A stretch of 22,846 nt of DNA, taken from assembly GCA_037441385.1 (NCBI GenBank), contig JBBISH010000103.1, positions 1-22,846 on the forward strand. Reading direction: 5' to 3'. Positions 1 to 22,640 of the stretch are shown in pieces (the stretch's first letter is position 1; each line of letters opens with the position of its first letter). The notes below the pieces were generated by a model. The model was not told the DNA's origin. It did no database searches and was given only the letters and a program-made list of their open reading frames with translations. Origin of the DNA: Myxococcales bacterium (GTDB lineage Bacteria > Myxococcota_A > UBA9042). The position numbers and the translations under genes are program-made.

Positions 1-153
1 CCCCGTCTGATTCACGCCTGTACGGCTTCTCTGACCCGGTCTGCAACCGGCGAGAATCAGGCGGGGACCCCGGTTCGAGCCCGAAGAATTGCCCGAGTTT
101 TCGATCCGATTCGGACGGAACTGGTATCAGGACCAGGAATCGGCGCGAAAAAG

Positions 154-209
154 TCGAAAGGGCCAACCTCGTTGCAGGATTGCGCCTGCGGCAGAGGTTG
201 ACCCTTCGA
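154..209 (-). terminator. Long hairpin followed by a T-run directly downstream of the tRNA; probable intrinsic terminator of the rplM-rpsI-tRNA unit
   Basis: tcgaaagggccaacctcgttgcagg (154-178) pairs imperfectly with cctgcggcagaggttgacccttcga (185-209); aaaaa at 148-152 gives UUUUU after the stem on the minus strand. Confidence 0.6.
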
Positions 210-213
210 TGGG

Positions 214-9228: not shown

Positions 9229-11952
9229 TCAGCCGTTGGGGTAGATGCGGGCGCGCAGCCGCCAGCGGCCCAGCTCTTTCTTCTTGCCGGGCGTCTCGGC
9301 CGGGGCGACACGCAACAAGAAGCCCTCGCCACTGCCATTGTTGACCAGGATCTGCCGCGCGGCCGGGTCGCCGATCGGGATCTGTCGCAGGTCGGCCTTG
9401 CTGCCCAAGTCGCGGATGAGCAAGGTGTATTGCCCAGACGGCGCGGCAGCGTCGATGCTCAGTTGCGTCATGCCGGCCTCGCCGCCTTCGACCCGCAGCC
9501 AATCGGTGGCGGCCGAGTCCCCGGTGTCGCCGTTGTGCCACGCGCCCAAAACCATAGGCTGTGCCGAGTCTTCGGTGTTGTTCGGCTCGGTCTCGCCCTG
9601 GTCCACCGCGCTGATGATGCGGTAGCGGAGCGTGTAGGGCACTTCGTCGGGCCGGAGTTCGGCACCCTTGGGGGCGTAGCGCGAAACCACCACCGAATCA
9701 GGCAGTTGCCTAGCCTCGCCCACGAACGACAGCGTGGCCTTGACCTCGCCGGGCTGCAGGCGCCGCGCCGCGAGCGTCCGCCGCGAGCCGTCGAGCAGGG
9801 CCAAGCGCAGCCCGCTTTGCTCTTGACCGGCTGGCAGTTCCACGTCGACCTGCAGCAACTGCGTCTCGGGGCTGCCGGCAATGGCAAAGGCGTCGCGATC
9901 CGACGGACCGTCCAGAATGCCGCTCCAGCGCAGCTCGGGCTGCGACTCGTTGCCGGGCGGCTCGTCGTTGGGCTCGGCTTCGGCGTGGAGCGGCCGCGGC
10001 TGGCGCTGCGTGGTCAATGTGTAGAGGTCCGACAGCGACTCGCCCGGCACCTGCCCCGGCACCTGCGCCTCGCTGATGCACACCACCCGCGCCTGCAAGT
10101 GCGGATTGACCAACCGCAGTCGCTCGCCCTGGCCCTTGCCGCGGTGCGAATGGGTCAGCAGCGGCTTGTCCGCGTCGCGGTGCAGCGTGAACTGCAGGTC
10201 CATGTTCGGCACGCCCTCGGCGTTCAAGATCAGCTCTTCGCCGTCGGCCACGCTGGGCAGAACGAAACAGTCCTGGTCGCCGATCTGCGCCGAACGCCGC
10301 TTGCCGATCACACCCTGCACCTGGTCGCCTGGGCCCAGCGGGTTGGCGTGCGCCACGTCGTCGTTGGGCTCTTGTTCGCGCGGATTGGGGGTGTGACTGA
10401 GCCACGCGGCCACACCAACCGCCGTCGCCAACGCCAGAATCGCACCACCAAATAGCCAGATGCGCTTCTTCTGGGCCGACGGTGCGGCGGCGAGCAGGCG
10501 CTCGGCTTCGTAGATCTCGGACGGACGCTGCGGGGGCGGTACGGCAGCCGGCTGCGCCGCAGGCTGGGTGCGCGTGTCGAGCAACGGAATCACCGCCGAT
10601 GGCCGCCGCGAAGTCCCCGCCGCCACGGCAGGCGCCGCCACGGTCGTCTCGCGGAACTGCGACTTCAGCGCCGTCACTAGCGCCTGCGCCATCTGCTCCA
10701 TGTCGGCAAAGCGCATCTGCGGGTCTTTTTGCAGCGCCTTGGCGACCACGTGCTCCAGCACTTCGGGGATCTGGGCGCCCGGCGCGACGTCGCGCATCTT
10801 GGGCGGCGCCTCCATCAAGTGCGCCTTCAGGATGTCGAAGGTGTTCTTCTGCTGGAACACGTTCTTGCCGGTCAGCATCCGGAACGCCAGCGCGCCCACC
10901 GAGTAGATGTCAGCGCGGCCATCGATCTCGGCGGCGCGGATCTGCTCGGGGCTCATGTAGAACGGCGTGCCAAAGATGTCGCGCTGGCTGTGGATCGTGT
11001 AGGGATCATCCACGCCTTCGACCTTGGCCAGACCAAAATCCAGGATCTTGACAAAATCCGGGTGGGCGGCGTTGTCGACCAGCATCACGTTTTCGGGCTT
11101 CAGGTCGCGGTGGACGATGCCGTGGCGATGAGCCTCGGCCAGCGAGTCGCACATCTGCAGCAGGATCCGCACGGCGCGGTCGGCCGGCAACGGCCCCTCG
11201 CGATCGAGCAGCGAGTCCAGCGCCTCGCCCTCGATGAGCTCCATCACCAAGTAGAACAGCTCGCTGTAGCGACCAAAGTCGTAGACCATCACCGTGTGCG
11301 GGCTGGAAAGCCGCGAGATGGCGCGGGCCTCGCGGGTAAAGCGGGCGATGAGCTGCTTCTTGCTGATCAGATTTTCGTGCAGGAGCTTGATCGCCATCGT
11401 CTTGCGCAGGTGCACCTGCTCGCAACGGTACACCGCGCCCATGCCCCCGCGGCCGATGAGGGCCTGGATCAGATAGCGATCGTCAATCAACTTACCCAGA
11501 TACGCGCTCTGCGGCTCGCCCTCGTCATCATTCATCGAAGTGAGCAACGTCGGCCCTTCCGCCGGTGGCGCGGGCGTCGCCGGCTTGGGGGGCGGTTTCT
11601 GCGCTGGCGACTTGCCCGAAGCCGAACGCGCCGGCATCGCGAGCGCCGGGATCGAACCCGACGGAGCCGTGGCCGGGCTCAGCGGCGCGGCGGCCGGCGG
11701 GGGCAAGGGCGGCGGCGTGCGCTCGTCGATTGCGGCGACCTCGCTGTCAGGCCGCGGCATCGCCGTAACAACGGTGGGCACGGTGCTGGGGTCAGCCAAC
11801 TCTTCTGGAAGTTCGTCCGCGGGTTGCGGGGGCAGTGGCGCTGGCGCGACGGGCACCACAGGGGCAGCCGCGGCCTGCAACGGCGAGCCATCCTCGCGGC
11901 AGAAACGCTCTGCGCCGCTGTAGCTTTTGCCGCACGCAGGACACGTCTTCAT
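9229..11952 (-). CDS. Membrane Hanks-type Ser/Thr protein kinase with N-terminal zinc-ribbon-like motif and extracellular EPND/PPC-like repeats
   Basis: GRGGMGAVY, AIK, HRDLKPEN, DFG, GTPFYMSPE, ADIYSVG; TM helix IWLFGGAILALATAVGVAAWL; EQEPND, EAEPND, ETEPNN repeats; N-terminal CPAC-x10-CRED. Confidence 0.95.
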   Translation of the reverse strand: MKTCPACGKSYSGAERFCREDGSPLQAAAAPVVPVAPAPLPPQPADELPEELADPSTVPTVVTAMPRPDSEVAAIDERTPPPLPPPAAAPLSPATAPSGSIPALAMPARSASGKSPAQKPPPKPATPAPPAEGPTLLTSMNDDEGEPQSAYLGKLIDDRYLIQALIGRGGMGAVYRCEQVHLRKTMAIKLLHENLISKKQLIARFTREARAISRLSSPHTVMVYDFGRYSELFYLVMELIEGEALDSLLDREGPLPADRAVRILLQMCDSLAEAHRHGIVHRDLKPENVMLVDNAAHPDFVKILDFGLAKVEGVDDPYTIHSQRDIFGTPFYMSPEQIRAAEIDGRADIYSVGALAFRMLTGKNVFQQKNTFDILKAHLMEAPPKMRDVAPGAQIPEVLEHVVAKALQKDPQMRFADMEQMAQALVTALKSQFRETTVAAPAVAAGTSRRPSAVIPLLDTRTQPAAQPAAVPPPQRPSEIYEAERLLAAAPSAQKKRIWLFGGAILALATAVGVAAWLSHTPNPREQEPNDDVAHANPLGPGDQVQGVIGKRRSAQIGDQDCFVLPSVADGEELILNAEGVPNMDLQFTLHRDADKPLLTHSHRGKGQGERLRLVNPHLQARVVCISEAQVPGQVPGESLSDLYTLTTQRQPRPLHAEAEPNDEPPGNESQPELRWSGILDGPSDRDAFAIAGSPETQLLQVDVELPAGQEQSGLRLALLDGSRRTLAARRLQPGEVKATLSFVGEARQLPDSVVVSRYAPKGAELRPDEVPYTLRYRIISAVDQGETEPNNTEDSAQPMVLGAWHNGDTGDSAATDWLRVEGGEAGMTQLSIDAAAPSGQYTLLIRDLGSKADLRQIPIGDPAARQILVNNGSGEGFLLRVAPAETPGKKKELGRWRLRARIYPNG

Positions 11953-13623: not shown

Positions 13624-14970
13624 TCAAGCGTCGCCCAGGGGCTCTGCGGCAAACGGCAGTGGCGCTTCCGTCGCGGCCTCGGCGCGCAATTGCACAAGCC
13701 AGGCGCCCACTTGGTCCACGTCGGTGGGATGGACGTACAGGCGCGTCAGCAGCGTATGGTCAGCGTACCGCTCGAAAAGCCGCGTCGCGCGGTCGAGTTC
13801 CAGCCACTTGACCGGGCCAAAGGGCGGTTTTTTGCGGACATAGATGGCGCGACCGCGATCGGCGGCGTGGTACTTGGACAGGGCGCCCTTGCTTGTCACG
13901 AAGAGGTGATCGATGCCCGCAGCCTGCAGACGCTCGACCAGCGGGGCAATCGGTTCAGCGATGCCGGCGGGCGACGACTCGGCCACAAGCCGCAGCGGTC
14001 GGTGGTGCAAGATGCCGGCCGCCCACGGCGAACGCCCCTCGAACTGCCGCAGCGTGCGCCAAAGGGCATGATCGTCAAACTCCAAGTAGGCGTCTGCGCT
14101 AGCTGGTGCCCGCACCGCCGCGCCGGCGTCGGCGTAGAAACGCCGCAGCATCTGGTCATAACAGACGGATTTCTTATGAAAATACACCATCAAAAACATG
14201 TGATGACGCGACAACAGAAAGTCATCGAACGAAAACAGCGCCCGGTCCTCTAGCCCCAGGTGCAGATGGCCGCGCTCGTCTTGGCGATGGCACAGGTGGG
14301 CGATGAGCCACGCCACATCGAATTCGCCATAGGATACGCCGGTGAAGTAGCTGTCGCGGAGCAGATAATCCATGCGGTCGACGTCGAGCTCGCCGGACAC
14401 CAGTGCCGCGAGCAGGTCGCGGAAGTTGCGGCCAGCCACACGGAACACTTCAGGATCACAGGCTACTTCGTCACTGATCAGCGCCGCGACATGCAGGGAG
14501 CGCACCCCAAGCGGCGCCATCGCGGTGTCGATGACGTCGCGCAGCCCAGAGCCCAGCAAGAACAGCAAGGTAAAGTGCTCGTGCGAACCTTGATCGCTTG
14601 GCAGCGGCAGGCGTAGGTCGGGGACGCCCAGCTCGGCGCCGGGCGGGAGGAGCACCTCGGACGAATGCGAGAGCGGCGGGTGGCCCAAATCGTGGCACAG
14701 CGCCGCCAGGCGCAAGGTCTGCCGCAGCCGCGCGCGCTCGCTGCCCGCCAGCCAATCGGCCTCGCGCAGCGCCGCGTCAAAGGCCAGGCCCGCCAGATGC
14801 ATCGCCCCCAGCGAGTGCAAGAACCGGCTGTGGCCGGCGCCGGGAAAGGTCAACTCCGAAAAGCCAAGTTGCTTGATGTTGCGCAAACGCTGCAGCCACG
14901 GCGAGTCGATGATTGCGGCTTCGGCCGGCGTGACAGGGATGGGGCCGTGGATCGGATCGCGAATTTCCAT
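13624..14970 (-). CDS. HD-superfamily phosphohydrolase (SAMHD1/YwfO-like dNTP triphosphohydrolase family)
   Basis: IRDPIHG, LQRLRNIKQLG, HSRFLHSLG, CHDLGHPPLSH, DVDRMDYLLRDS, VYFHK. Confidence 0.92.
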   Translation of the reverse strand: MEIRDPIHGPIPVTPAEAAIIDSPWLQRLRNIKQLGFSELTFPGAGHSRFLHSLGAMHLAGLAFDAALREADWLAGSERARLRQTLRLAALCHDLGHPPLSHSSEVLLPPGAELGVPDLRLPLPSDQGSHEHFTLLFLLGSGLRDVIDTAMAPLGVRSLHVAALISDEVACDPEVFRVAGRNFRDLLAALVSGELDVDRMDYLLRDSYFTGVSYGEFDVAWLIAHLCHRQDERGHLHLGLEDRALFSFDDFLLSRHHMFLMVYFHKKSVCYDQMLRRFYADAGAAVRAPASADAYLEFDDHALWRTLRQFEGRSPWAAGILHHRPLRLVAESSPAGIAEPIAPLVERLQAAGIDHLFVTSKGALSKYHAADRGRAIYVRKKPPFGPVKWLELDRATRLFERYADHTLLTRLYVHPTDVDQVGAWLVQLRAEAATEAPLPFAAEPLGDA

Positions 14971-15000
14971 GGAATCATGCCCTTTGGGGTCGTGGGTCGT

Positions 15001-16899
15001 TCATTTCAGCTGGGGCCAGGCCTGTGCCGCGCGCTGACGAAGTACGGGATCCGTAATACCGGCAAGGACTTGTAGGGCCTGCTGCCGCAGTGGTTCCCAC
15101 TCGGGATGGCGGGCGACGGCCTGCGCCAGGTGCCCCACGGCTTGCTCTGGCAGCCCGCCCAACGCGAGCCCCGCGGCGGTGGCCGAGACCCACTGCGGGT
15201 CCTGGTCCGGATCGGCGACAAAGCGCCGGGCAAACGCAGATCGCGCAGGGTCTTGCGCGGCAACCGCCAACACATAGGCATCCAACGGCGTGCGACCGCG
15301 GAAGGCCCCCGCTGGCAGATCGCGCACCAACGCAAAGGCGCGCTGGTGCTGCTGGCAGCGCATACCCCAGCCAATGCTGGCCAGGCGGGCAGGCACAGCG
15401 CGCTTGGTCGAGCCCTGCACCGCTTGCGCGAACGGCTCGGCGGCCGGGCAGTTGCCTGCGGTCAGCGCGGCATCCAGCCCCGTAGCCCACACCCCCGGAT
15501 CGCCGCGGTCCAGGGCCAAGGCCGCCTGCGCGTGCGGCAGCGCCAGGTCCGGGCGGCGCTGAACCACCAGGACATGCGCCAGGTTGACGCGCATCCGCAG
15601 CGAGTTGGGCTGCAGGCGCACGCCGCGCTCGAACAGCCGCAGCGGTGTGGTCCAATCGTCAGCGACCGCCTGGGTCTGCAGCGTCGCGGGGATCAGCAGA
15701 GCCAACCCCGCCGGCACCGCGGCCCGCATCGACAGCCGATCCGTCGCGAGCGCGATCGCCACTGCCACCCAGAGCGTGGGCGTGGTCAACAGGCGATCGG
15801 CAAACTGCACGGTCGCGGGCGTCAGGATCTGCGAAAGGGGCAGCCAAGCCAGCAGCACGCCCAAGGGCAAGAGCACCACACCCTCGCGGCGCAGTTGCGC
15901 AGACTCGTCGGGCTCGCCTTCACGCGGCAACCGCAGCCAGGACCAGACGGCCAGCGCGACCAACGCCAGCAAACCCAGCATCCCGGCCGTGGCCAATAGC
16001 GACCAGTCGCCCGCTGGCGGCCAGACGGCAAAGGTATAGTCGGGGGCCAAGTCCGCGGGCCAAATCAGGCGAGCCAGGGCGCGGGCGCTCAGCTCAAGTC
16101 CGCTGAAAACGCGAGTGGTAGCGGGTACATGCGCCAGCGGATTGTCGTGGAGCGGCACCTTGGCGGCCAGCAGCGAGCCGATGTTCCAGCGCCGCCAAAC
16201 CAGCCACGCCAACGCCACCGGCGCCAGCCCCAAGACCGCGGGCAACATGCGCTGCCGACACGGCTTGTCTAGCAATGCCCAGGCGCCCCACCAAGCCAGC
16301 ACGGCGACCGAACTCTCTTTGGACAAGAGCGCCAACGCCGTCCACAGCGCCAGACGCAGGCCGTGGCGAGGCAGCGGCGCGCCGGTGCGGATCTGCCACA
16401 ACTCGCGCGTCCCCAGCACCAGCAGCCACAGGGCCTGCAGCTCGGGCCGGTAGGCCACCTGCATCACTGCCTCGGTGTGCAGCGGGTGGGCGGCAAAAAG
16501 GGCCACGGCCAGGCCAGCCGTGCGCTCGGGGTGGCGAAGGCCAGCGGCGCGCAGCCAATCGCGAATCAGTAGATAGCTAGACACGCATATACAAAGCAAA
16601 ATAAGCAGTTGCACGACGTGGCGCGCCAAGGAACTGGTCAACCCCAGCGCGGTTTCCAGGCAAAAGCCCAAGGTCACCGCAGGTCGCGACGGAAAATCGC
16701 CCAGCCGTTCGGCCGGGCCGAAGTACCGCCCCGAAAAAATGCCCGCCAAGTCGGGCGGCCAGGCCACCAGCGGGTTGCCGGTGATCGCCGCCCCGTCGTC
16801 GTGCACGTACTGCGCCTGCAGCGCCGCCGGTCCGTACGCCACCGCGATCAGCAGTGCTGCAGCGGAGATCGCGAGCCATGTCGCGCGGTTACGGGTCAT
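15001..16899 (-). CDS. TMTC-like GT-C membrane glycosyltransferase with C-terminal TPR-like region
   Basis: True start is ATG 16899 (ATGA overlap with the rodA stop). Motifs VHDD..AITGNP, RP, FAAHPLHTEAV..R.EL, LLSKES, DNPL, LIWPADLAPDY, ADRLL, then W..PLRLFERGVRLQPNSLRMRVNLA; many hydrophobic helices. Confidence 0.82.
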   Translation of the reverse strand: MTRNRATWLAISAAALLIAVAYGPAALQAQYVHDDGAAITGNPLVAWPPDLAGIFSGRYFGPAERLGDFPSRPAVTLGFCLETALGLTSSLARHVVQLLILLCICVSSYLLIRDWLRAAGLRHPERTAGLAVALFAAHPLHTEAVMQVAYRPELQALWLLVLGTRELWQIRTGAPLPRHGLRLALWTALALLSKESSVAVLAWWGAWALLDKPCRQRMLPAVLGLAPVALAWLVWRRWNIGSLLAAKVPLHDNPLAHVPATTRVFSGLELSARALARLIWPADLAPDYTFAVWPPAGDWSLLATAGMLGLLALVALAVWSWLRLPREGEPDESAQLRREGVVLLPLGVLLAWLPLSQILTPATVQFADRLLTTPTLWVAVAIALATDRLSMRAAVPAGLALLIPATLQTQAVADDWTTPLRLFERGVRLQPNSLRMRVNLAHVLVVQRRPDLALPHAQAALALDRGDPGVWATGLDAALTAGNCPAAEPFAQAVQGSTKRAVPARLASIGWGMRCQQHQRAFALVRDLPAGAFRGRTPLDAYVLAVAAQDPARSAFARRFVADPDQDPQWVSATAAGLALGGLPEQAVGHLAQAVARHPEWEPLRQQALQVLAGITDPVLRQRAAQAWPQLK

Positions 16900-18014
16900 C
16901 GGCGCCCCTGACCGCGGCGAGAAAGGTTGAGCAGAAAACCGACGGCCACCAGCACGGTCAGCGCACTGGACCCGCCGTACGAAAACAAGGGCAGCGTGAT
17001 CCCCACCACCGGCAGAAGGCCGATGACCATGCCGGCGTTGATGAAGAATTGCCAGAAGACCAGCGCAGCAACCCCGATGGCCAGCAGCGCGTCGAATCGT
17101 TCGGTGGCGCGATTGGCGATGGCGAGACCCCAGCCGACCACGCCCGTGTAGAGCAGGAACAGCACGGTCGCTCCCACCAGCCCAAACCGCGTACACAGGG
17201 GCGCCAAGGCAAAATCGGTATGCACAAAGGGCAAGTGGCGCAACACCGATTGGCGGGCATCGGCGTCGGTCTTGCCCCACAGCCGCCCTGATCCCACCGC
17301 CCACAGCGCCTGCTCGGCCTGGGTGCGTTCGGACGGCGCCCGTGGGCGCTCTTCCTCTTCGACGATGGCTTGGTACCAGGCCTCGGCCCGGCCCTTTTGG
17401 TAGTCGCGGATCAGGCCGGTTTCCCAAGCGACGCTGGCGCCCAACACGACCACGATCATCGCGAGCACCGCCGATCGACCGCGGATGCCTTCGTACAGGA
17501 TCATCGACCCGCCGATGGCCGCCACCACCAGGGACGTGCCCAGGTCGGGCTCGCGGTTGATGAGGATCACGGGCACGGCGACCAAAGCGGCCGGACGGAT
17601 CAAGTCGCGCAGGCGCCAATTTTCGCTGGCGCGGCGCTTGTCGAACCAATCTGCCACGACCAAGATGATCGATAGCTTCATGAATTCACTTGGCTGCAGA
17701 CTCATCGGCCCCAGCTCGATCCAACGCCGGCTGTAATTGATTTCGCGACCTATGACGAGCACCAGCACCAGCAGGATATTCAGGGCAAAGTACACGGACA
17801 TGCCCACGCGGCGCACGTAGACCGGATCGATGGCCGCCACCAGACCCGCGCCGACCAGACCGAGCACGAACCAGATGATCTGGGTGCGATGGTAGGTGGT
17901 CTGCATCAAGCTGTCGGTAAACACCAAATTGTCCACGGCGACCGCGCAGATCGCGATCGTGCACAGCAGGCCGATGACCGTGCTGGGCCGGCGCATGGAG
18001 CTGAAGACGCTCAT
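16896..18014 (-). CDS. rodA: Rod shape-determining SEDS peptidoglycan polymerase RodA
   Basis: Start ATG 18014 overlaps the mrdA stop. RRWI..G..LQPSEFMK, EPDLGT, AVGSG, HTDF, LPVVGITLPLFSYGGSS. Confidence 0.95.
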   Translation of the reverse strand: MSVFSSMRRPSTVIGLLCTIAICAVAVDNLVFTDSLMQTTYHRTQIIWFVLGLVGAGLVAAIDPVYVRRVGMSVYFALNILLVLVLVIGREINYSRRWIELGPMSLQPSEFMKLSIILVVADWFDKRRASENWRLRDLIRPAALVAVPVILINREPDLGTSLVVAAIGGSMILYEGIRGRSAVLAMIVVVLGASVAWETGLIRDYQKGRAEAWYQAIVEEEERPRAPSERTQAEQALWAVGSGRLWGKTDADARQSVLRHLPFVHTDFALAPLCTRFGLVGATVLFLLYTGVVGWGLAIANRATERFDALLAIGVAALVFWQFFINAGMVIGLLPVVGITLPLFSYGGSSALTVLVAVGFLLNLSRRGQGRR

Positions 18015-20344
18015 GGCGCGTCCTCCGGACCAGGCTCGGGCGGCGAAGGATCGGGCTCGACGCTTGGGGTGTCGTTGCCATCGTGCGGCGCACCTTCGTC
18101 GGCGGCGTCGTCGGCCTGTTCGACGGGCAGCGGCTTCTTCTTCTCGCGCACCGGCGCGGGCTCCAGGTCCGGGGGCGCCGGGTGTTTGGCGAACCACGCG
18201 TCGACGATTTGGCGAGCGATCGGCGCCGCGTTGTGGCCACCCGAACCGCCGTGCTCGATGAGCACCGCCACCACCACCTTGGGCGTGCCCCACGGCGCCC
18301 ACCCCACGAACCAGGAGTGATCGTTCTGCAACCACGCGGTCAACCGCGCCAATTGGCCAGGATCGTCCTTGAGTCGCTCGACCATCTCTTTGCGCAAACG
18401 CTGAGGCGCTTGGGCCGTACCCGTCTTGCCGGCCATCACCACCGAGTCCGGCTTGCTGCCAAACGCGGTGCCGCCCTCTTCGTTCACCACCGCGCGGAGC
18501 GCCGCCCGTACCAACTGCAGGTTGGCTTTCTTGACGCCGATGTCGCGACCTGGCAGCCGGTTGGGCGCGATCAGCTTGCCGGCGGCGTCCTCAAATCCCT
18601 CGACGATCGTGAGCGACGGCAGTTGCCCGCCGTTGGCCAGCGCCGCGTAGACCCGAGCAATCTGCAGCGGCGACGCCAACACGTCCTTCTGCCCCACCGC
18701 GGTGGACAGGGCGAACCCGGGGAAATAGCCGCCGGGCACATGCTGCCGGTACCACTCGCGCGACGGAACCCGGCCCACCGACTCGCGGATTTCGATACCG
18801 GTCGGCTCGCCAAAGCCCAGGCGGCGCGACCACTCTTCCAGGCGTTCGATGCCCAGCTCTTCGCCCACGCGGTAGAAGAACACGTCGCAACTGCCGCGCA
18901 AGGCGTCGTGGACGTCGACCTCGCCGTGGCCGCGGCGGTTGTGGCAGTGGAAGCGCCGGCCGCCAAAATCGTAGTGACCGCTGCAGGTGTACTCGCTTTT
19001 GGCGTTGATGATCCCCTCTTGCAGCCCGGCCAGCGCGGCCACCACTTTGTAGGTCGAAGCCGGCGGATAGCCGCGCAGCGCCTTGTTGAGCAAGGGCGCA
19101 TAAGCACTGATTTCGTCAAGTGGTCTGGCCTGCGGCGCGTGCTTGCCGCTCAGCTCGTTGGGGTCAAAGCTGGGCTTGGCATACATCGCCAGGATGTAGC
19201 CGGTCGACGGGTCGATGACCACGGCCGCGCCCGAATAGACATCCTTCATAGCCACTTTGACGGCGCGCTGCAGGTCGACGTCCAAGGTGAGCCGCACGGT
19301 GGCCCCGGCCACGACTTGCCGCGGTTTCAGCGCCGCCACTAGGTCGTCCAGGTCGTGTGCCGCCTCTTCGCCGCTGGGCTTCTTGACGATCAACTGCTCG
19401 CCGTCCAAGCCGCGCAGGGCTTCGTCAAACGCCAGTTCCAGCCCCGAGCGGCCGACGCGGTCCGACATGCCAAAGCGCGGCGTGCCAAACGGCAGCGGCG
19501 GCTCCAGGTCGCGCGGCCCGACGTAGCCCATGTAACCCAGCACATGGCTTGCCAAATACCGGTAGGGGTACTCGCGCTGGATGTCGGCCACCACGCGCGC
19601 CTCGGGCAGCCGGTGCAGGTTGGCGCGCAAGACCGCCACTTCGTCGTTGAAGGTGCGGCGGCACAGCGGGCAGCGCAGGATGTGCGGCTCCATGCGCAAA
19701 GGCTGCCCGTCGTAGGCGCAGTGATCGCCGTCAAGGAATTCGCGATCGCACGCCACGCAGTGCCAGCCACCGTTGCCCGACGCCACCAACCGGCGCTGAT
19801 CGAAAGGACAGGTCTTCTTTTGCGGCACCGCCTCGAAGTGGCGCCCACAGGTCGTGCAGTAGCCGTGCGGCTGCTCGGTGGTCAGCTCCAGCGCACTCGA
19901 GTCGTAGGGGCAGTGGGTCGACACCAGATCGCGCCGCACCGTCAGGGGCCGCCGCTTGCGCGGATCGACCGGCTTCTTGAGCTCATTGATCACGCTGGCG
20001 CGCTCGGCGTCGGTCATGTCGAGCAACTCGGCCAGCGTCGCGGCGATCGGCTCGATCCGCTCGGGCTTGACGCGATTGGTCATGATCTCAAGCGAATGAC
20101 TCTCGATGTTGCGGGCCAGCACCGTGCCGTCGCTCGTCTTGATGAGGCCGCGCGGGGCCTGCGCCCGTACCCGCGACACCCGCTCGATCGCTGCGTATTT
20201 TTGGTAGCGATCGCCGCGCACCACCTGCACCAGCACCAGCCGCGCCACCAGGGCCGCCACAGCCGCCAAAACCAGCACCATCGCCACCCGGAAGTGCGGG
20301 CGATAGCGCTGCGGATCGTGCGATTTGCCGAGCGACAGCCCCAT
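18011..20344 (-). CDS. mrdA: Penicillin-binding protein 2 with a Cys-rich insertion
   Basis: N-terminal TM helix; APRGLI, REYPY..ASHVLGYMG, GRSGLE, LTLDVDLQ; active-site STYK, SCD and KTGTAQ; DHSWFVG; located between mreD and rodA. Confidence 0.96.
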   Translation of the reverse strand: MGLSLGKSHDPQRYRPHFRVAMVLVLAAVAALVARLVLVQVVRGDRYQKYAAIERVSRVRAQAPRGLIKTSDGTVLARNIESHSLEIMTNRVKPERIEPIAATLAELLDMTDAERASVINELKKPVDPRKRRPLTVRRDLVSTHCPYDSSALELTTEQPHGYCTTCGRHFEAVPQKKTCPFDQRRLVASGNGGWHCVACDREFLDGDHCAYDGQPLRMEPHILRCPLCRRTFNDEVAVLRANLHRLPEARVVADIQREYPYRYLASHVLGYMGYVGPRDLEPPLPFGTPRFGMSDRVGRSGLELAFDEALRGLDGEQLIVKKPSGEEAAHDLDDLVAALKPRQVVAGATVRLTLDVDLQRAVKVAMKDVYSGAAVVIDPSTGYILAMYAKPSFDPNELSGKHAPQARPLDEISAYAPLLNKALRGYPPASTYKVVAALAGLQEGIINAKSEYTCSGHYDFGGRRFHCHNRRGHGEVDVHDALRGSCDVFFYRVGEELGIERLEEWSRRLGFGEPTGIEIRESVGRVPSREWYRQHVPGGYFPGFALSTAVGQKDVLASPLQIARVYAALANGGQLPSLTIVEGFEDAAGKLIAPNRLPGRDIGVKKANLQLVRAALRAVVNEEGGTAFGSKPDSVVMAGKTGTAQAPQRLRKEMVERLKDDPGQLARLTAWLQNDHSWFVGWAPWGTPKVVVAVLIEHGGSGGHNAAPIARQIVDAWFAKHPAPPDLEPAPVREKKKPLPVEQADDAADEGAPHDGNDTPSVEPDPSPPEPGPEDAP

Positions 20345-20347
20345 GGT

Positions 20348-20866
20348 CTAGCGCCTCAGCAGCAAGTTGCCGTGGGCATGGCTGTCCAGGCGGCGGCGGA
20401 TGCGCTCCATGAGCCAAAACTGCAGCGGACTCACCAACATCGTCGTGAGCGCCAGCGGCAGCGCCGTGGTCAGCACCTCGGCGTAGGCGTCAAAGGCGCG
20501 GTGGAAGACCGACTCGAAGGCCAAGAACAGGCCGCTGGCCAGCAGCGAGATCGCCGCCGAGCTCGCCATCACCGGCAGCGGACTGACCAAATCGACCCGC
20601 GCCTGCAAAAAGCGCCCGATCAGCGCCACCAGAACCGCAATCTCCGTGTACACGCCCACCGGCGCCGACAGCGAGAATCCGTCTTTGAGCAGGCCGACGA
20701 CAAAGGCCATCGCCACCGCCGGACCAGTCTCTAGGCGGGACCCCAAGTAAAGCGCTGAAATCAACGCCACATCCGGCGCGTACAGCTGCACATCGAGCCG
20801 ACCCAGCAGCGGGCTGAGCAGCGCAAGGAAAAGGTAGGTCAGGGCGACCCAGGCCAAGTACTTCAC
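20348..20866 (-). CDS. mreD: Rod shape-determining protein MreD
   Basis: 172-aa polytopic membrane protein with PDVALI and AFVVGLLKDGFS..PVG, lying between mreC and mrdA; GTGA overlap with the mreC stop. Confidence 0.88.
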   Translation of the reverse strand: MKYLAWVALTYLFLALLSPLLGRLDVQLYAPDVALISALYLGSRLETGPAVAMAFVVGLLKDGFSLSAPVGVYTEIAVLVALIGRFLQARVDLVSPLPVMASSAAISLLASGLFLAFESVFHRAFDAYAEVLTTALPLALTTMLVSPLQFWLMERIRRRLDSHAHGNLLLRR

Positions 20867-21810
20867 GGCGGCGCATCCGGGGTGTTGGCAGGGTCGATGT
20901 TGCGGCGACCGCTGGGTTTGCTGGGTTCACTGGCCGGCTTGCCCTCCGGCTCGGCCATGGCGCCGCGGTAGTTGACGACGATCAACACCTCTTCCAGGGT
21001 GGCGTAGGACACGGCCGGGGCCAAGACGAATTCGTAGTACGGGCCCGAGCGGGTCGGCGTGCCTTCGGCGATGTGGCCGATCTCCAAACCGGCAGGGAAC
21101 ACGCGGTCGTGGCCGGTGGTGTAGACGGCGTCGCCCACGCCCAGGGGCATGCCGCGCTCTGCGTCGTCCAGGTGCACGAATTGCGCCGAAAACTCGTTGC
21201 GTTTGCCGCGACCGCGCACCGAGCCAACCACGCCCTTGCCCGGTACGGTGGCGTGCACCTGCGAGCGCGCGTCGGTGACCAGCATCACGTCGGCCCAGTT
21301 CCCGCTCAGTTTCTCGATGCGGCCGACCACGCCGTCGTGGGTGATCACCGCCTGACCCTCGCGCGCACTCGCCGCGCCCTCTACGTCCAAACGCAAGCGA
21401 ACCACTTGAAAGAACTGCGACACGTCGCGACCCACCACGCGGGCCGGCACGGTCTCGAACTCTTTGGCCCGCTCGCGAAAACCGCACAGCTGCTTGATAC
21501 GCGCCAGTTCGGCGGCCTGCGTGCGCGATCGCAGCGCTTCGCCCAGCAGGATCTTGTTCTCGCGCTCCAGCTCGCGGTTGCGCTCTTCCACCCGCGTGAG
21601 CACCACATACGCCGACAACAGATCACCCACGCCGGCCACCACATCGTGGCTCACGCGCGTCACCGGCGAGGTCACCGCCAACAGACCGCGCTCGATGACC
21701 GACGTCTCTTTGCGCGCCTTGCCGTGAAAGTACATCGACGCCACCGGCGCCACCAAGACGACGATCAGCAGCAGGGTCTGTCGATATCGCGTCAGCAGAT
21801 CGCGCCACAT
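20863..21810 (-). CDS. mreC: Rod shape-determining protein MreC
   Basis: N-terminal TM helix, coiled coil (ERNRELERENK), PARVVGRD, AVIT..GVVGRI, GDAVYTTGHDRVFPAGLEIG, LEEVLIV. Confidence 0.95.
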   Translation of the reverse strand: MWRDLLTRYRQTLLLIVVLVAPVASMYFHGKARKETSVIERGLLAVTSPVTRVSHDVVAGVGDLLSAYVVLTRVEERNRELERENKILLGEALRSRTQAAELARIKQLCGFRERAKEFETVPARVVGRDVSQFFQVVRLRLDVEGAASAREGQAVITHDGVVGRIEKLSGNWADVMLVTDARSQVHATVPGKGVVGSVRGRGKRNEFSAQFVHLDDAERGMPLGVGDAVYTTGHDRVFPAGLEIGHIAEGTPTRSGPYYEFVLAPAVSYATLEEVLIVVNYRGAMAEPEGKPASEPSKPSGRRNIDPANTPDAPP

Positions 21811-21844: not shown

Positions 21845-21873
21845 AGTGTACCGCGAGCGCGGTTGGGCGGCTA
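21845..21873 (-). promoter_or_regulatory. Possible promoter of the mreC operon
   Basis: Minus strand TAGCCG (21873-21868), 17-nt spacer, TACACT (21850-21845); the palindrome accgcg-ag-cgcggt (21850-21863) lies essentially in the spacer. Confidence 0.4.
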
Positions 21874-22311
21874 TCCTTGCGTATCCATCGATTGTCGCAA
21901 CGCAATCTGCCGATCGTGTCGCACCGACGTGACCAAGTGGACCACGAGCCACAACGATGCCGCCACCAGCAGCGCCACCGGCACCCAGAACCACGGCGTG
22001 GCGCCCGCCGCGGTGCCGATCAGCGGCGACACCGCCCGATCGATCAGCAAATTGCCCCAGACGCTGGTGGTCGCCAGCGCGAGCACGGTCAGGACGACGC
22101 GGCGCACCAGTCCGGCGTTCTGCCGCCAACGCATGAAATTGCCAGCCAGAATGTTGGTCGCCACTCCCATCGCCAGGTAGACCAGCCAGTCGCCCAGATC
22201 GATGTAGAGCGCCACCAGAGCCGTGGCCAAGGTGCTCAGAAGGTGCGCCGCCATGGCCAGCCGCAGCCACCGCGGCGAGTGACGCAGCTCTTGGACGGGC
22301 GCCAGCGTCAC
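21871..22311 (-). CDS. Small membrane protein of unknown function (about 4 TM helices)
   Basis: Four hydrophobic segments in the 3' part of the 21871-22593 ORF; start uncertain (GTG 22311 chosen) because the upstream part looks non-coding. Confidence 0.65.
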   Translation of the reverse strand: MTLAPVQELRHSPRWLRLAMAAHLLSTLATALVALYIDLGDWLVYLAMGVATNILAGNFMRWRQNAGLVRRVVLTVLALATTSVWGNLLIDRAVSPLIGTAAGATPWFWVPVALLVAASLWLVVHLVTSVRHDRQIALRQSMDTQG

Positions 22312-22522
22312 GTCGGCCAGCGTTTCTAGCGTTGAGTGGTGAGCCGAAGGCGCGCTCGCCACCTGCACCGGCGGATCGCCAGGCGGACGACCGGGCGCGG
22401 TGGTCTGCGGGTCCGCATTTGGCGGGGTCGCTGGCGGTGGGGAATGCGACTGCACGCCGCGACGTTGGCAGGATGCGCCGCGACTTGCAAGGTCGGTCCG
22501 GCGATTTTCCGCGCGCCAGATC

Positions 22523-22550
22523 TTGCGCGGTGGCGGTGCTGGCCTATCCT
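22523..22550 (+). promoter_or_regulatory. Possible sigma70-type promoter of the last gene
   Basis: TTGCGC (22523-22528), 16-nt spacer, TATCCT (22545-22550). Confidence 0.35.
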
Positions 22551-22640
22551 TTTGGGCCGCATCGCCAGCCGAACGGGTTGGACCGCGCCGCACCGCAGGA
22601 GAAGGAACCGCTGCGACAGGGACGGGGGCTTGAGGAGAAC

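Follow-up and report, generated by a model that had tools for sequence, protein, structure and literature searches.

Does a cysteine-rich block in a periplasmic cell wall enzyme form a metal-binding module, how would such a module be put together, and what could it do there? These questions are raised by a 22,846-nucleotide contig of a Myxococcales bacterium (GenBank assembly GCA_037441385.1, contig JBBISH010000103.1), analysed over its whole length and called here the window. Its minus strand encodes penicillin-binding protein 2 (PBP2, gene mrdA), in which residues 144-232 form an 89-amino-acid (aa) insert with six short Cys-containing knuckles. The reading that we favour, with a probability of roughly 0.6, is that the insert forms three nested Cys3Asp zinc sites and stands as a finger on the docking surface of the PBP2 head subdomain. 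The gene, the insert and its knuckles, named K1 to K6 in protein order, are:

18011..20344, minus strand: mrdA, penicillin-binding protein 2 (777 aa), assigned by NCBIfam TIGR03423, Pfam domains and catalytic motifs
19649..19915, minus strand: the 89-aa insert, PBP2 residues 144-232, in the head subdomain, with six knuckles read as three Cys3Asp zinc sites
19901..19912, minus strand: K1, CPYD (C145, D148), with C and D invariant in 71 of 71 unique inserts
19847..19858, minus strand: K2, CTTC (C163, C166), altered jointly with K5 in lineages f2, f3 and part of f9
19799..19810, minus strand: K3, CPFD (C179, D182), with His for Asp in 3 unique inserts
19748..19759, minus strand: K4, CVAC (C196, C199); the K3+K4 unit of the model superposes on Cys4 zinc ribbons
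19709..19720, minus strand: K5, CAYD (C209, D212), with His for Asp in 4 unique inserts, each of which has CxxD at K2
19661..19672, minus strand: K6, CPLC (C225, C228), at a K5-K6 spacing of 12 in 90 of 90 unique inserts

The insert belongs to a genuine PBP2

The 777-aa open reading frame (ORF) begins with a membrane helix at about residues 20-42 and scores 515.5 bits against NCBIfam TIGR03423 (pbp2_mrdA), above the cut-off of 455 for PBP2 membership. Pfam finds PBP_dimer (PF03717) at residues 62-326 with 82.1 bits and Transpeptidase (PF00905) at 372-714 with 204.9 bits, and the catalytic SxxK, SxN/D and KTG motifs are present as STYK at 430, SCD at 485 and KTGT at 640. The gene order mreC, probable mreD (assigned by position), mrdA, rodA is that of a PBP2 neighbourhood, and a search with the whole protein gave no second match in the window's own genome, which is 91% complete. 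The product is a true PBP2, the housekeeping transpeptidase of the elongasome. The original prediction, made from the DNA letters, had named it as such, and both the TIGR03423 score and the alignments to solved PBP2 chains uphold that assignment.

Translation of the minus strand over 19649-19915 returned the 89 residues, together with the flanks, that had been quoted in the original prediction. The nine Cys lie at positions 145, 163, 166, 179, 196, 199, 209, 225 and 228 and are accompanied by three motif Asp; the knuckles follow each other as CPxD, CxxC, CPxD, CxxC, CxxD and CPxC, with strict alternation of CxxD and CxxC types. TIGR03423 matches the protein in two stretches, the second of which places residues 229-719 on profile positions 118-592. 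Against the solved chain 7kis_A, residues 14-128 align to 17-129 and residues 231-721 to 139-610; about 100 residues here thus stand in place of about 9 in solved PBP2 chains, leaving about 90 extra. The boundary check against the MrdA profile and the solved chain therefore confirms an insertion.

Run X1, possibly the source sample, contains an independent 20.7-kb Logan contig that is identical to the window over 19300-20300, and a second sample of the same study (X2) yielded an identical 151-nt contig within the insert (19741-19891). None of the sequencing runs listed as containing the stretch is an RNA run. An assembly artefact, named at the outset as one outcome that would undo the claim, is contradicted by these contigs and by conservation in 14 families. 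A frameshifted reading and a mobile-element insertion were likewise ruled out, the frame and the ligands being conserved across the 14 families.

The insert is kept across most of one class, with simpler loops elsewhere

Forty relatives were searched with the whole protein and 30 PBP2 loci were fetched, 29 from relatives and one from the window's own genome. All 30 have the insert, at lengths of 88-100 aa and down to 39% full-length identity. A profile built from 28 inserts was then run across the phylum, on 401 genomes. The organism's class was covered by 78 of them, and 57 of these gave a match, namely the window's genome and all 56 relatives in 14 families; the 19 genomes of family f7 and the one genome each of f15 and f5 gave none. 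The other 323 genomes yielded no more than 5 matches, all weak (E 6e-10 to 6e-6, in frames of 306-529 aa); two of these were read, and both are non-PBP membrane proteins. Searching with the insert alone, as had been proposed for mapping its spread, thus placed it in this class.

Against 1.84 billion representative proteins the same profile gave 810 matches at E<=1e-3. Among the best 150 of these, 13 match once, over about residues 135-244 (one of them N-terminally truncated), and all 11 of the 13 that were scanned are proteins with PBP_dimer and Transpeptidase domains. The proteins matching in many stretches were set aside as motif look-alikes, being eukaryote-type C2H2 arrays (5 of 5 scanned) or double-zinc-ribbon proteins (3 of 3 scanned). 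A whole-protein search for related loci returned 12, comprising 10 metagenome-assembled genome records of close relatives and two Bdellovibrionota; two protein searches turned up no cultured carrier.

The PBP2 head loop was read in 36 further genomes. At precisely the site of the insert, two sister families have one ribbon alone: f7, in each of the 14 genomes examined, and f15, in its one genome. This ribbon is made of a CPxD knuckle, 12-14 residues and a C[PS]xC knuckle, and its flanking sequence shows homology to K1 and K6. A short Cys-free loop is found in the one f5 genome, in 18 genomes of 9 other families of the phylum (a convenience sample from the 34 non-class genomes that matched an N-terminal query at E<=1e-8) and in the two Bdellovibrionota. 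A quick tree of PBP2 that excludes the columns of the insert gives no resolution at the base of the class and has the one-ribbon and no-ribbon rows on long branches; it therefore establishes no order among none, one and three ribbons.

Ligand conservation points to three metal sites

By the usual zinc-ribbon measure of two knuckles with four ligands, the six knuckles supply ligands for three sites, 9 Cys and 3 Asp. The twelve ligand positions read exactly C-D-C-C-C-D-C-C-C-D-C-C in 64 of 71 unique inserts. When 20 more distant inserts were added, giving a set of 90 unique inserts, all six knuckles were intact in 78 of the 90, allowing His for Asp; a His stands at an Asp ligand position in 8 of the 90, and the K1 Asp position is G, Q or H in 4 of the 20 added inserts. 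All 12 Cys of the protein lie either in the insert or in a zinc motif of known type in the transpeptidase domain. The odd number of Cys, nine, and the use of Asp or His as the fourth ligand fit metal sites better than disulfides, and we consider it likely that the insert holds three metal sites, with zinc as the predicted ion. The Cys/Asp pattern of three metal sites claimed in the original prediction is thus borne out by conservation, including swaps of Asp to His.

Two inserts of family f9, L081 (genome G032) and L082 (genome G039), have kept the length of the insert and have four Cys only; judged from their residues, they may have two disulfides in place of zinc sites.

The knuckles probably pair in a fully nested order

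The original prediction had offered two arrangements of the sites, one in tandem and one in which the first CPYD closes onto the last CPLC around two inner CxxC-CxxD ribbons. Aligned ranges, DSSP assignments and ligand co-variation suggest a different arrangement, and on this modelled evidence a fully nested pairing of K1 with K6, K2 with K5 and K3 with K4 seems probable. The closure of the first knuckle onto the last is thereby retained from the earlier proposal, and the tandem and inner CxxC-CxxD schemes are disfavoured by the fold matches, the strands and the co-variation.

The insert folded alone (AlphaFold2, 28 sequences) gave a pLDDT of 93.3 and a pTM of 0.76. Residues 32-63 or 34-63 of this model, which contain K3 and K4, align with canonical ribbons in more than 15 rows from two VIA searches, over 30-32 aa at a root-mean-square deviation (rmsd) of 1.3-2.5 Å and with weak Z scores of 2-3. 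The ribbons matched are those of Rpb9/C11, NrdR, PriA and a Rieske-type subunit, and the ends of the aligned ranges fit K3 and K4 lying on the two knuckles; on the Cys4 ribbons of Rpb9 and NrdR the unit superposes at 1.8-2.5 Å with a Z of only 2.0-2.7. No VIA row covers model residues 1-30 or 62-89 alone, and several rows span 12..81 or 14..78 with just 32-41 residues aligned. In a separate model of the pedestal, DSSP shows no hairpin except between K3 and K4; insert residues 10-19 and 74-81 each form one long strand. The spacers of the 90 unique inserts follow the same lines: K5-K6 is constant, K4-K5 is 9 in 86 of 90, and K3-K4 varies from 12 to 23, which is where the nested scheme expects a tip loop.

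Lineages with altered knuckles show which positions change together. In f2 (P0021, L085) the Cys of K2 and K5 are lost and the other four knuckles are kept; f3 (4 unique inserts) has CxxD at K2 along with CxxH at K5; P0041 lacks one K3 ligand and one K4 ligand; and in L083 (f4) K2 and K5 are the only intact knuckles. Counted by hand over f2, f3, P0041 and f4, the pair states are concordant in 12 of 12 cases for the fully nested scheme, 6 of 12 for the tandem scheme and 4 of 12 for the nested scheme of the original prediction. L084, whose state is made ambiguous by an insertion within K5, was left out of this count, as were L081, L082 and the variants of single knuckles, which do not discriminate.

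The insert projects from the head subdomain close to a probable MreC-contact helix

In the pedestal model (PBP2 residues 41-345) the insert is predicted with a pLDDT of 83-94 per 10-residue block, and the prediction is poor for parts of the anchor and linker. Among the structural matches of this model, PBP2 of Acinetobacter baumannii ranks first (76 residues, rmsd 2.0 Å, Z 10.2), with its residues 85..160 aligned to model residues 42..213; the head subdomain of that protein comprises residues 78-165, according to the section of PMC9974482 that describes it. Since the 76 matched residues are spread over model positions 42..213, the head fold is intact and the insert is an excursion from it. In the model it sits between a short head strand and the last head helix:

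19622..19642, minus strand: head helix after the insert, PBP2 residues 235-241, assigned by DSSP as a helix at 195-201 of the pedestal model

MreC docks mainly on the head subdomain of PBP2, as stated in passages of PMC5626683 and PMC10449877, and the hydrophobic zipper between MreC and PBP2 in Helicobacter pylori includes PBP2 Tyr127' and Tyr134' (passage in PMC5626683). The helix at 235-241, which starts about 3 residues past the insert, is probably the counterpart of the helix with these two contact residues, a correspondence that comes from a linear alignment offset and is not residue-level. Profile and chain alignments, the pedestal model and the portions of PMC5626683 and PMC9974482 cited above together bear out the earlier claim of a true insertion in the periplasmic pedestal and place it in the MreC-docking head subdomain.

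A proposed zinc-stapled finger as an extension of the docking surface

We propose that the six knuckles would bind three Zn2+, each held by three Cys and one Asp (His in some lineages). K1+K6 would lie at the base, K2+K5 in the middle and K3+K4 at the tip of a long two-stranded finger stapled by three metals, with the variable loop at its tip and both ends meeting where the finger enters the head. The base would lie a few residues ahead of the probable MreC-contact helix, and the likeliest role is therefore a rigid, zinc-dependent extension of the docking surface. That the module extends or stiffens the head surface that docks MreC, or another periplasmic partner in the elongasome, is put forward tentatively. 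Conservation within the insert is highest at the base knuckles and in the stretch that leads into the next helix, and the base is also present in f7; we therefore think that the module acts at or near the head surface and not via its tip. As a side effect, the module would make the head fold dependent on the supply of zinc and the redox state of the thiols. An added interaction surface and a sensitivity to metal or redox conditions had both been floated in the original prediction, and both are conjectural.

A more far-reaching idea, which we regard as improbable, is that the module is a periplasmic switch in which loss of zinc or oxidation of the nine thiols would unfold or re-lock the head beside the MreC-contact helix. 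In this class, oxidative stress or the zinc supply of the periplasm would in that case gate the activation of RodA-PBP2 by MreC, and hence cell elongation, and the decayed lineages with a single Cys in paired knuckles would be versions fixed by disulfides. A predicted complex of the insert, MreC residues 112-285 and three Zn gave an ipSAE of 0.00 in both runs, which speaks neither for nor against binding.

Alternative arrangements and points against the proposal

The tandem arrangement (K1+K2, K3+K4, K5+K6), listed first in the original prediction, would have come about by triplication of an ancestral single CPxD-x14-CxxC ribbon. Its three units are indeed alike (CPxD-x3-L ... CxxC-x-R-x-F) and resemble the single ribbon that 14 of 14 examined f7 genomes and one f15 genome have at the same site, a likeness that suits a tandem origin, and its K3+K4 pair is common to the fully nested scheme. 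It is nevertheless hard to reconcile with f2, where the Cys are gone from K2 and K5 but present in K1 and K6, or with f4, where K2 and K5 are the only intact pair, and it accounts for half of the pair states that the nested scheme explains in full. Moreover, the prediction gives the K1-K2 and K5-K6 spacers one long strand each in place of hairpins, residues 1-30 and 62-89 have no fold match of their own, and the supposed linkers K2-K3 and K4-K5 are near-fixed in length; we therefore judge this arrangement unlikely. Hardly better placed is an outer K1+K6 pair around two sequential ribbons, K2+K3 and K4+K5, although K2-K3 and K4-K5 do read CxxC-x-R-x-F ... CPxD-x3-L at spacings of 9-13, and free-standing CxxC-CPxDG ribbons elsewhere in the phylum have this motif at spacings of 9-12. 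Such ribbons occur in the Ser/Thr kinase of the window (11890-11943) and in arrays of weakly matching non-PBP proteins, and the variable K3-K4 segment could then be a linker. Against this, the AlphaFold2 model joins K3 and K4 in one canonical ribbon (30-32 aa, rmsd 1.3-2.5 Å, more than 15 rows), and ligand co-variation agrees with just a third of the pair states.

The remaining alternatives concern the metal and the role. A metal-free knot of disulfides, its Cys oxidised in the periplasm, would suit the location of the module and a genome rich in DsbA-family domains with VKOR in addition, and the decayed L081 and L082 keep exactly one Cys in each of K1, K3, K4 and K6, as two disulfides would need. 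The canonical form, with nine Cys, leaves one unpaired; the fourth-ligand Asp is near-invariant apart from its replacement by His in 8 of the 90 unique inserts; the knuckle motifs are of the zinc-ribbon type, and the inner unit superposes on Cys4 ribbons, all of which makes such a knot very unlikely. That the module is a decoration which the structure tolerates and which has no elongasome role of its own is easier to entertain, if still doubtful: the insert is missing from f5 (one genome) and from 18 of 18 genomes examined in 9 further families of the phylum, some lineages let one or two sites decay, and MreC does not vary with the insert. What speaks against mere tolerance is that the module is kept in 57 of 78 genomes of the class in 14 families, that its ligands and several non-ligand residues are conserved down to 33-39% identity, and that it adjoins the probable MreC-contact helix of an essential enzyme.

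Beyond the likeness of the three units and the ribbon-like spacing of K2-K3 and K4-K5, several observations weigh against the favoured reading as a whole. The pairing was read indirectly, from aligned ranges, DSSP and co-variation; the lineages with altered knuckles are a small set whose changes may not be independent, and the replacement residues common to f2 and part of f9 may go back to one event. Foldseek found no match of the insert model in the PDB at E<=1e-3, the ESM Atlas gave no usable match, and the fold matches to the insert model are weak, with a best VIA Z of 3.0. No Pfam or NCBIfam zinc-ribbon model exceeds its cut-off on the insert, the best being Zn_ribbon_6 with 16.7 bits against 25; the curated families DZR_2 and Zn_ribbon_11, the NCBIfam YgiT finger and others also stayed below theirs, as did every NCBIfam match to the insert. 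The sole model over its cut-off was zf-C2H2_jaz (23.0 bits against 22.6), without any single matched stretch. The compartment is oxidising, and the genome has 24 DSBA-domain and 2 VKOR matches, which would favour disulfides; zinc in the insert is a prediction from sequence and model. The tip of the finger is its least conserved part, which makes a tip reaching out to a distant partner unlikely. Finally, no domain-level change in MreC tracks the state of the insert, MreC being co-linear in all genomes compared (16 triple-insert, 3 single-ribbon and 1 no-ribbon genomes of the class and 2 outgroup genomes).

A further zinc motif of known type in the transpeptidase domain

Separate from the insert, the catalytic domain contains a motif with counterparts in solved PBPs:

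18887..18985, minus strand: zinc motif of known type, C454, C467, H473 and C486, in the transpeptidase domain, aligned to A. baumannii PBP2

The four residues align, with matching spacing, to the D..D..H..C positions of A. baumannii 7zg8/8zpc, and they are invariant in 30 of 30 homologues of the class; C486 is the middle residue of the S-x-D motif. The zinc ligands of A. baumannii PBP2 are D350, D365, H371 and C384 (as listed in a part of PMC9974482), and those of Clostridioides difficile PBP2 are D515/D528/H538/C551, with Cys variants in PBP3 and SpoVD (as listed in a part of PMC9334274). By this alignment, PBP2 of the window probably binds a further, fourth zinc in its transpeptidase domain. 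The D/C-D/C-H-C motif is confined to that domain, and the head insert is a feature apart from it. The Cys-containing zinc sites described in these portions of PMC9974482 and PMC9334274 mean that extracytoplasmic, Cys-held zinc has a precedent in this enzyme family.

Neighbouring genes and other features

The genes flanking mrdA in the window are oriented alike:

20863..21810, minus strand: mreC (315 aa), upstream of mrdA and like-oriented, Pfam MreC with 91.6 bits
20348..20866, minus strand: probable mreD (172 aa), from its position between mreC and mrdA and its hydrophobic sequence only
16896..18335, minus strand: rodA ORF as listed, Pfam FTSW_RODA_SPOVE with 268.5 bits, from ORF residue 127

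No Pfam family was found at E<=1e-4 on the probable mreD product. The listed rodA ORF overlaps the end of mrdA; the real start of rodA probably lies downstream of the listed one, close to the stop codon of mrdA, and the two genes therefore probably abut. Past the transpeptidase domain, residues about 722-777 of PBP2 (18011-18180, minus strand) form a tail rich in Pro, Glu and Asp. Pfam likewise finds no family at E<=1e-4 on the ORF upstream of mreC (240 aa; 21871-22593, minus strand) or on two large ORFs downstream of rodA (882 aa and 448 aa; 13624-17649, minus strand), and mreB does not adjoin mreC in the window. Elsewhere in the genome, DSBA matches lie on contigs C15, C17, C65, C92, C106 and others, several of them stacked three or four per frame, and C65 has a VKOR match and a DSBA match within one 851-aa frame; no DsbB match was found in this 91%-complete genome.

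Comparison with known systems

The original prediction knew of no PBP2 with such a module, and our searches of full texts outside subscription journals and supplements likewise found no description of one; by term count, the words zinc, cysteine and Myxococc- are absent from a 2025 survey of bPBP architectures. The head subdomain of PBP2 is the control point at which MreC switches on side-wall synthesis, and it was not until 2022-2023 that PBPs were recognised as depending on zinc, and then only beside the active site. Here a predicted three-metal module is built into the regulatory surface itself across most of one Myxococcota class. If zinc is bound, the total for this PBP2 would be four ions, and metal and redox conditions in the periplasm could become determinants of cell shape; a triple nested ribbon would also be an unusual architecture for a small domain. 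The series of none, one and three ribbons at one loop offers natural variants for probing the role of the head surface.

The known PBP zinc site has in common with this PBP2 that an extracytoplasmic class B PBP holds a structural zinc partly by Cys, here in a Cys-Cys-His-Cys form. That site, however, is one ion beside the active site, bound by the fold's own residues, whereas the insert is an added 89-residue module of the head with three predicted sites. The single-ribbon PBP2 of f7 and f15 shares with the triple form the insertion point, the order of CPxD first and CxxC second, and flanks homologous to K1 and K6, but its ribbon is one only and about 25 residues long; it may be ancestral to the triple form or reduced from it, the tree favouring neither.

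Free-standing ribbons of the form CxxC-x9-12-CPxDGxxL, found in kinases and membrane proteins of Myxococcota, share the knuckle motifs and the Cys3Asp composition and give weak matches to the insert profile. In the window, the Ser/Thr kinase (907 aa, ORF 9229-11952, minus strand) opens with a CxxC-x9-CxxDG ribbon at 11890-11943, Cys3Asp in sequential order. Arrays of 3-6 sequential ribbons occur in L047 (G043:C163), L048 (G046:C12), P0056, P0075, P0119, P0134 and P0144, with long linkers between the ribbons and, in several cases, after a membrane helix; those of L048 would lie on the cytoplasmic side of that helix. Unlike the insert, these are sequential units with long linkers in non-PBP proteins, and not part of an enzyme domain.

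The classical ribbons of the Rpb9/C11 N-terminal domain, NrdR and the Cys-rich region of PriA consist, like the K3+K4 unit, of two knuckles and a small beta sheet, but they are Cys4, cytoplasmic and related to nucleic acids, whereas the insert would have one Asp or His per site, is periplasmic and has three apparently nested units. The cysteine-rich domain of DnaJ has two zinc sites, formed by repeats 1+4 and 2+3, in a hairpin inserted in another domain. DnaJ_CXXCXGXG (PF00684) gave no match listed for the insert at E<=1, the knuckles being without the GxG part of that motif. The insert thus shares the nested logic of the DnaJ domain but differs from it in having three predicted sites instead of two, in lacking the CxxCxGxG motif, and in being periplasmic where DnaJ is cytoplasmic.

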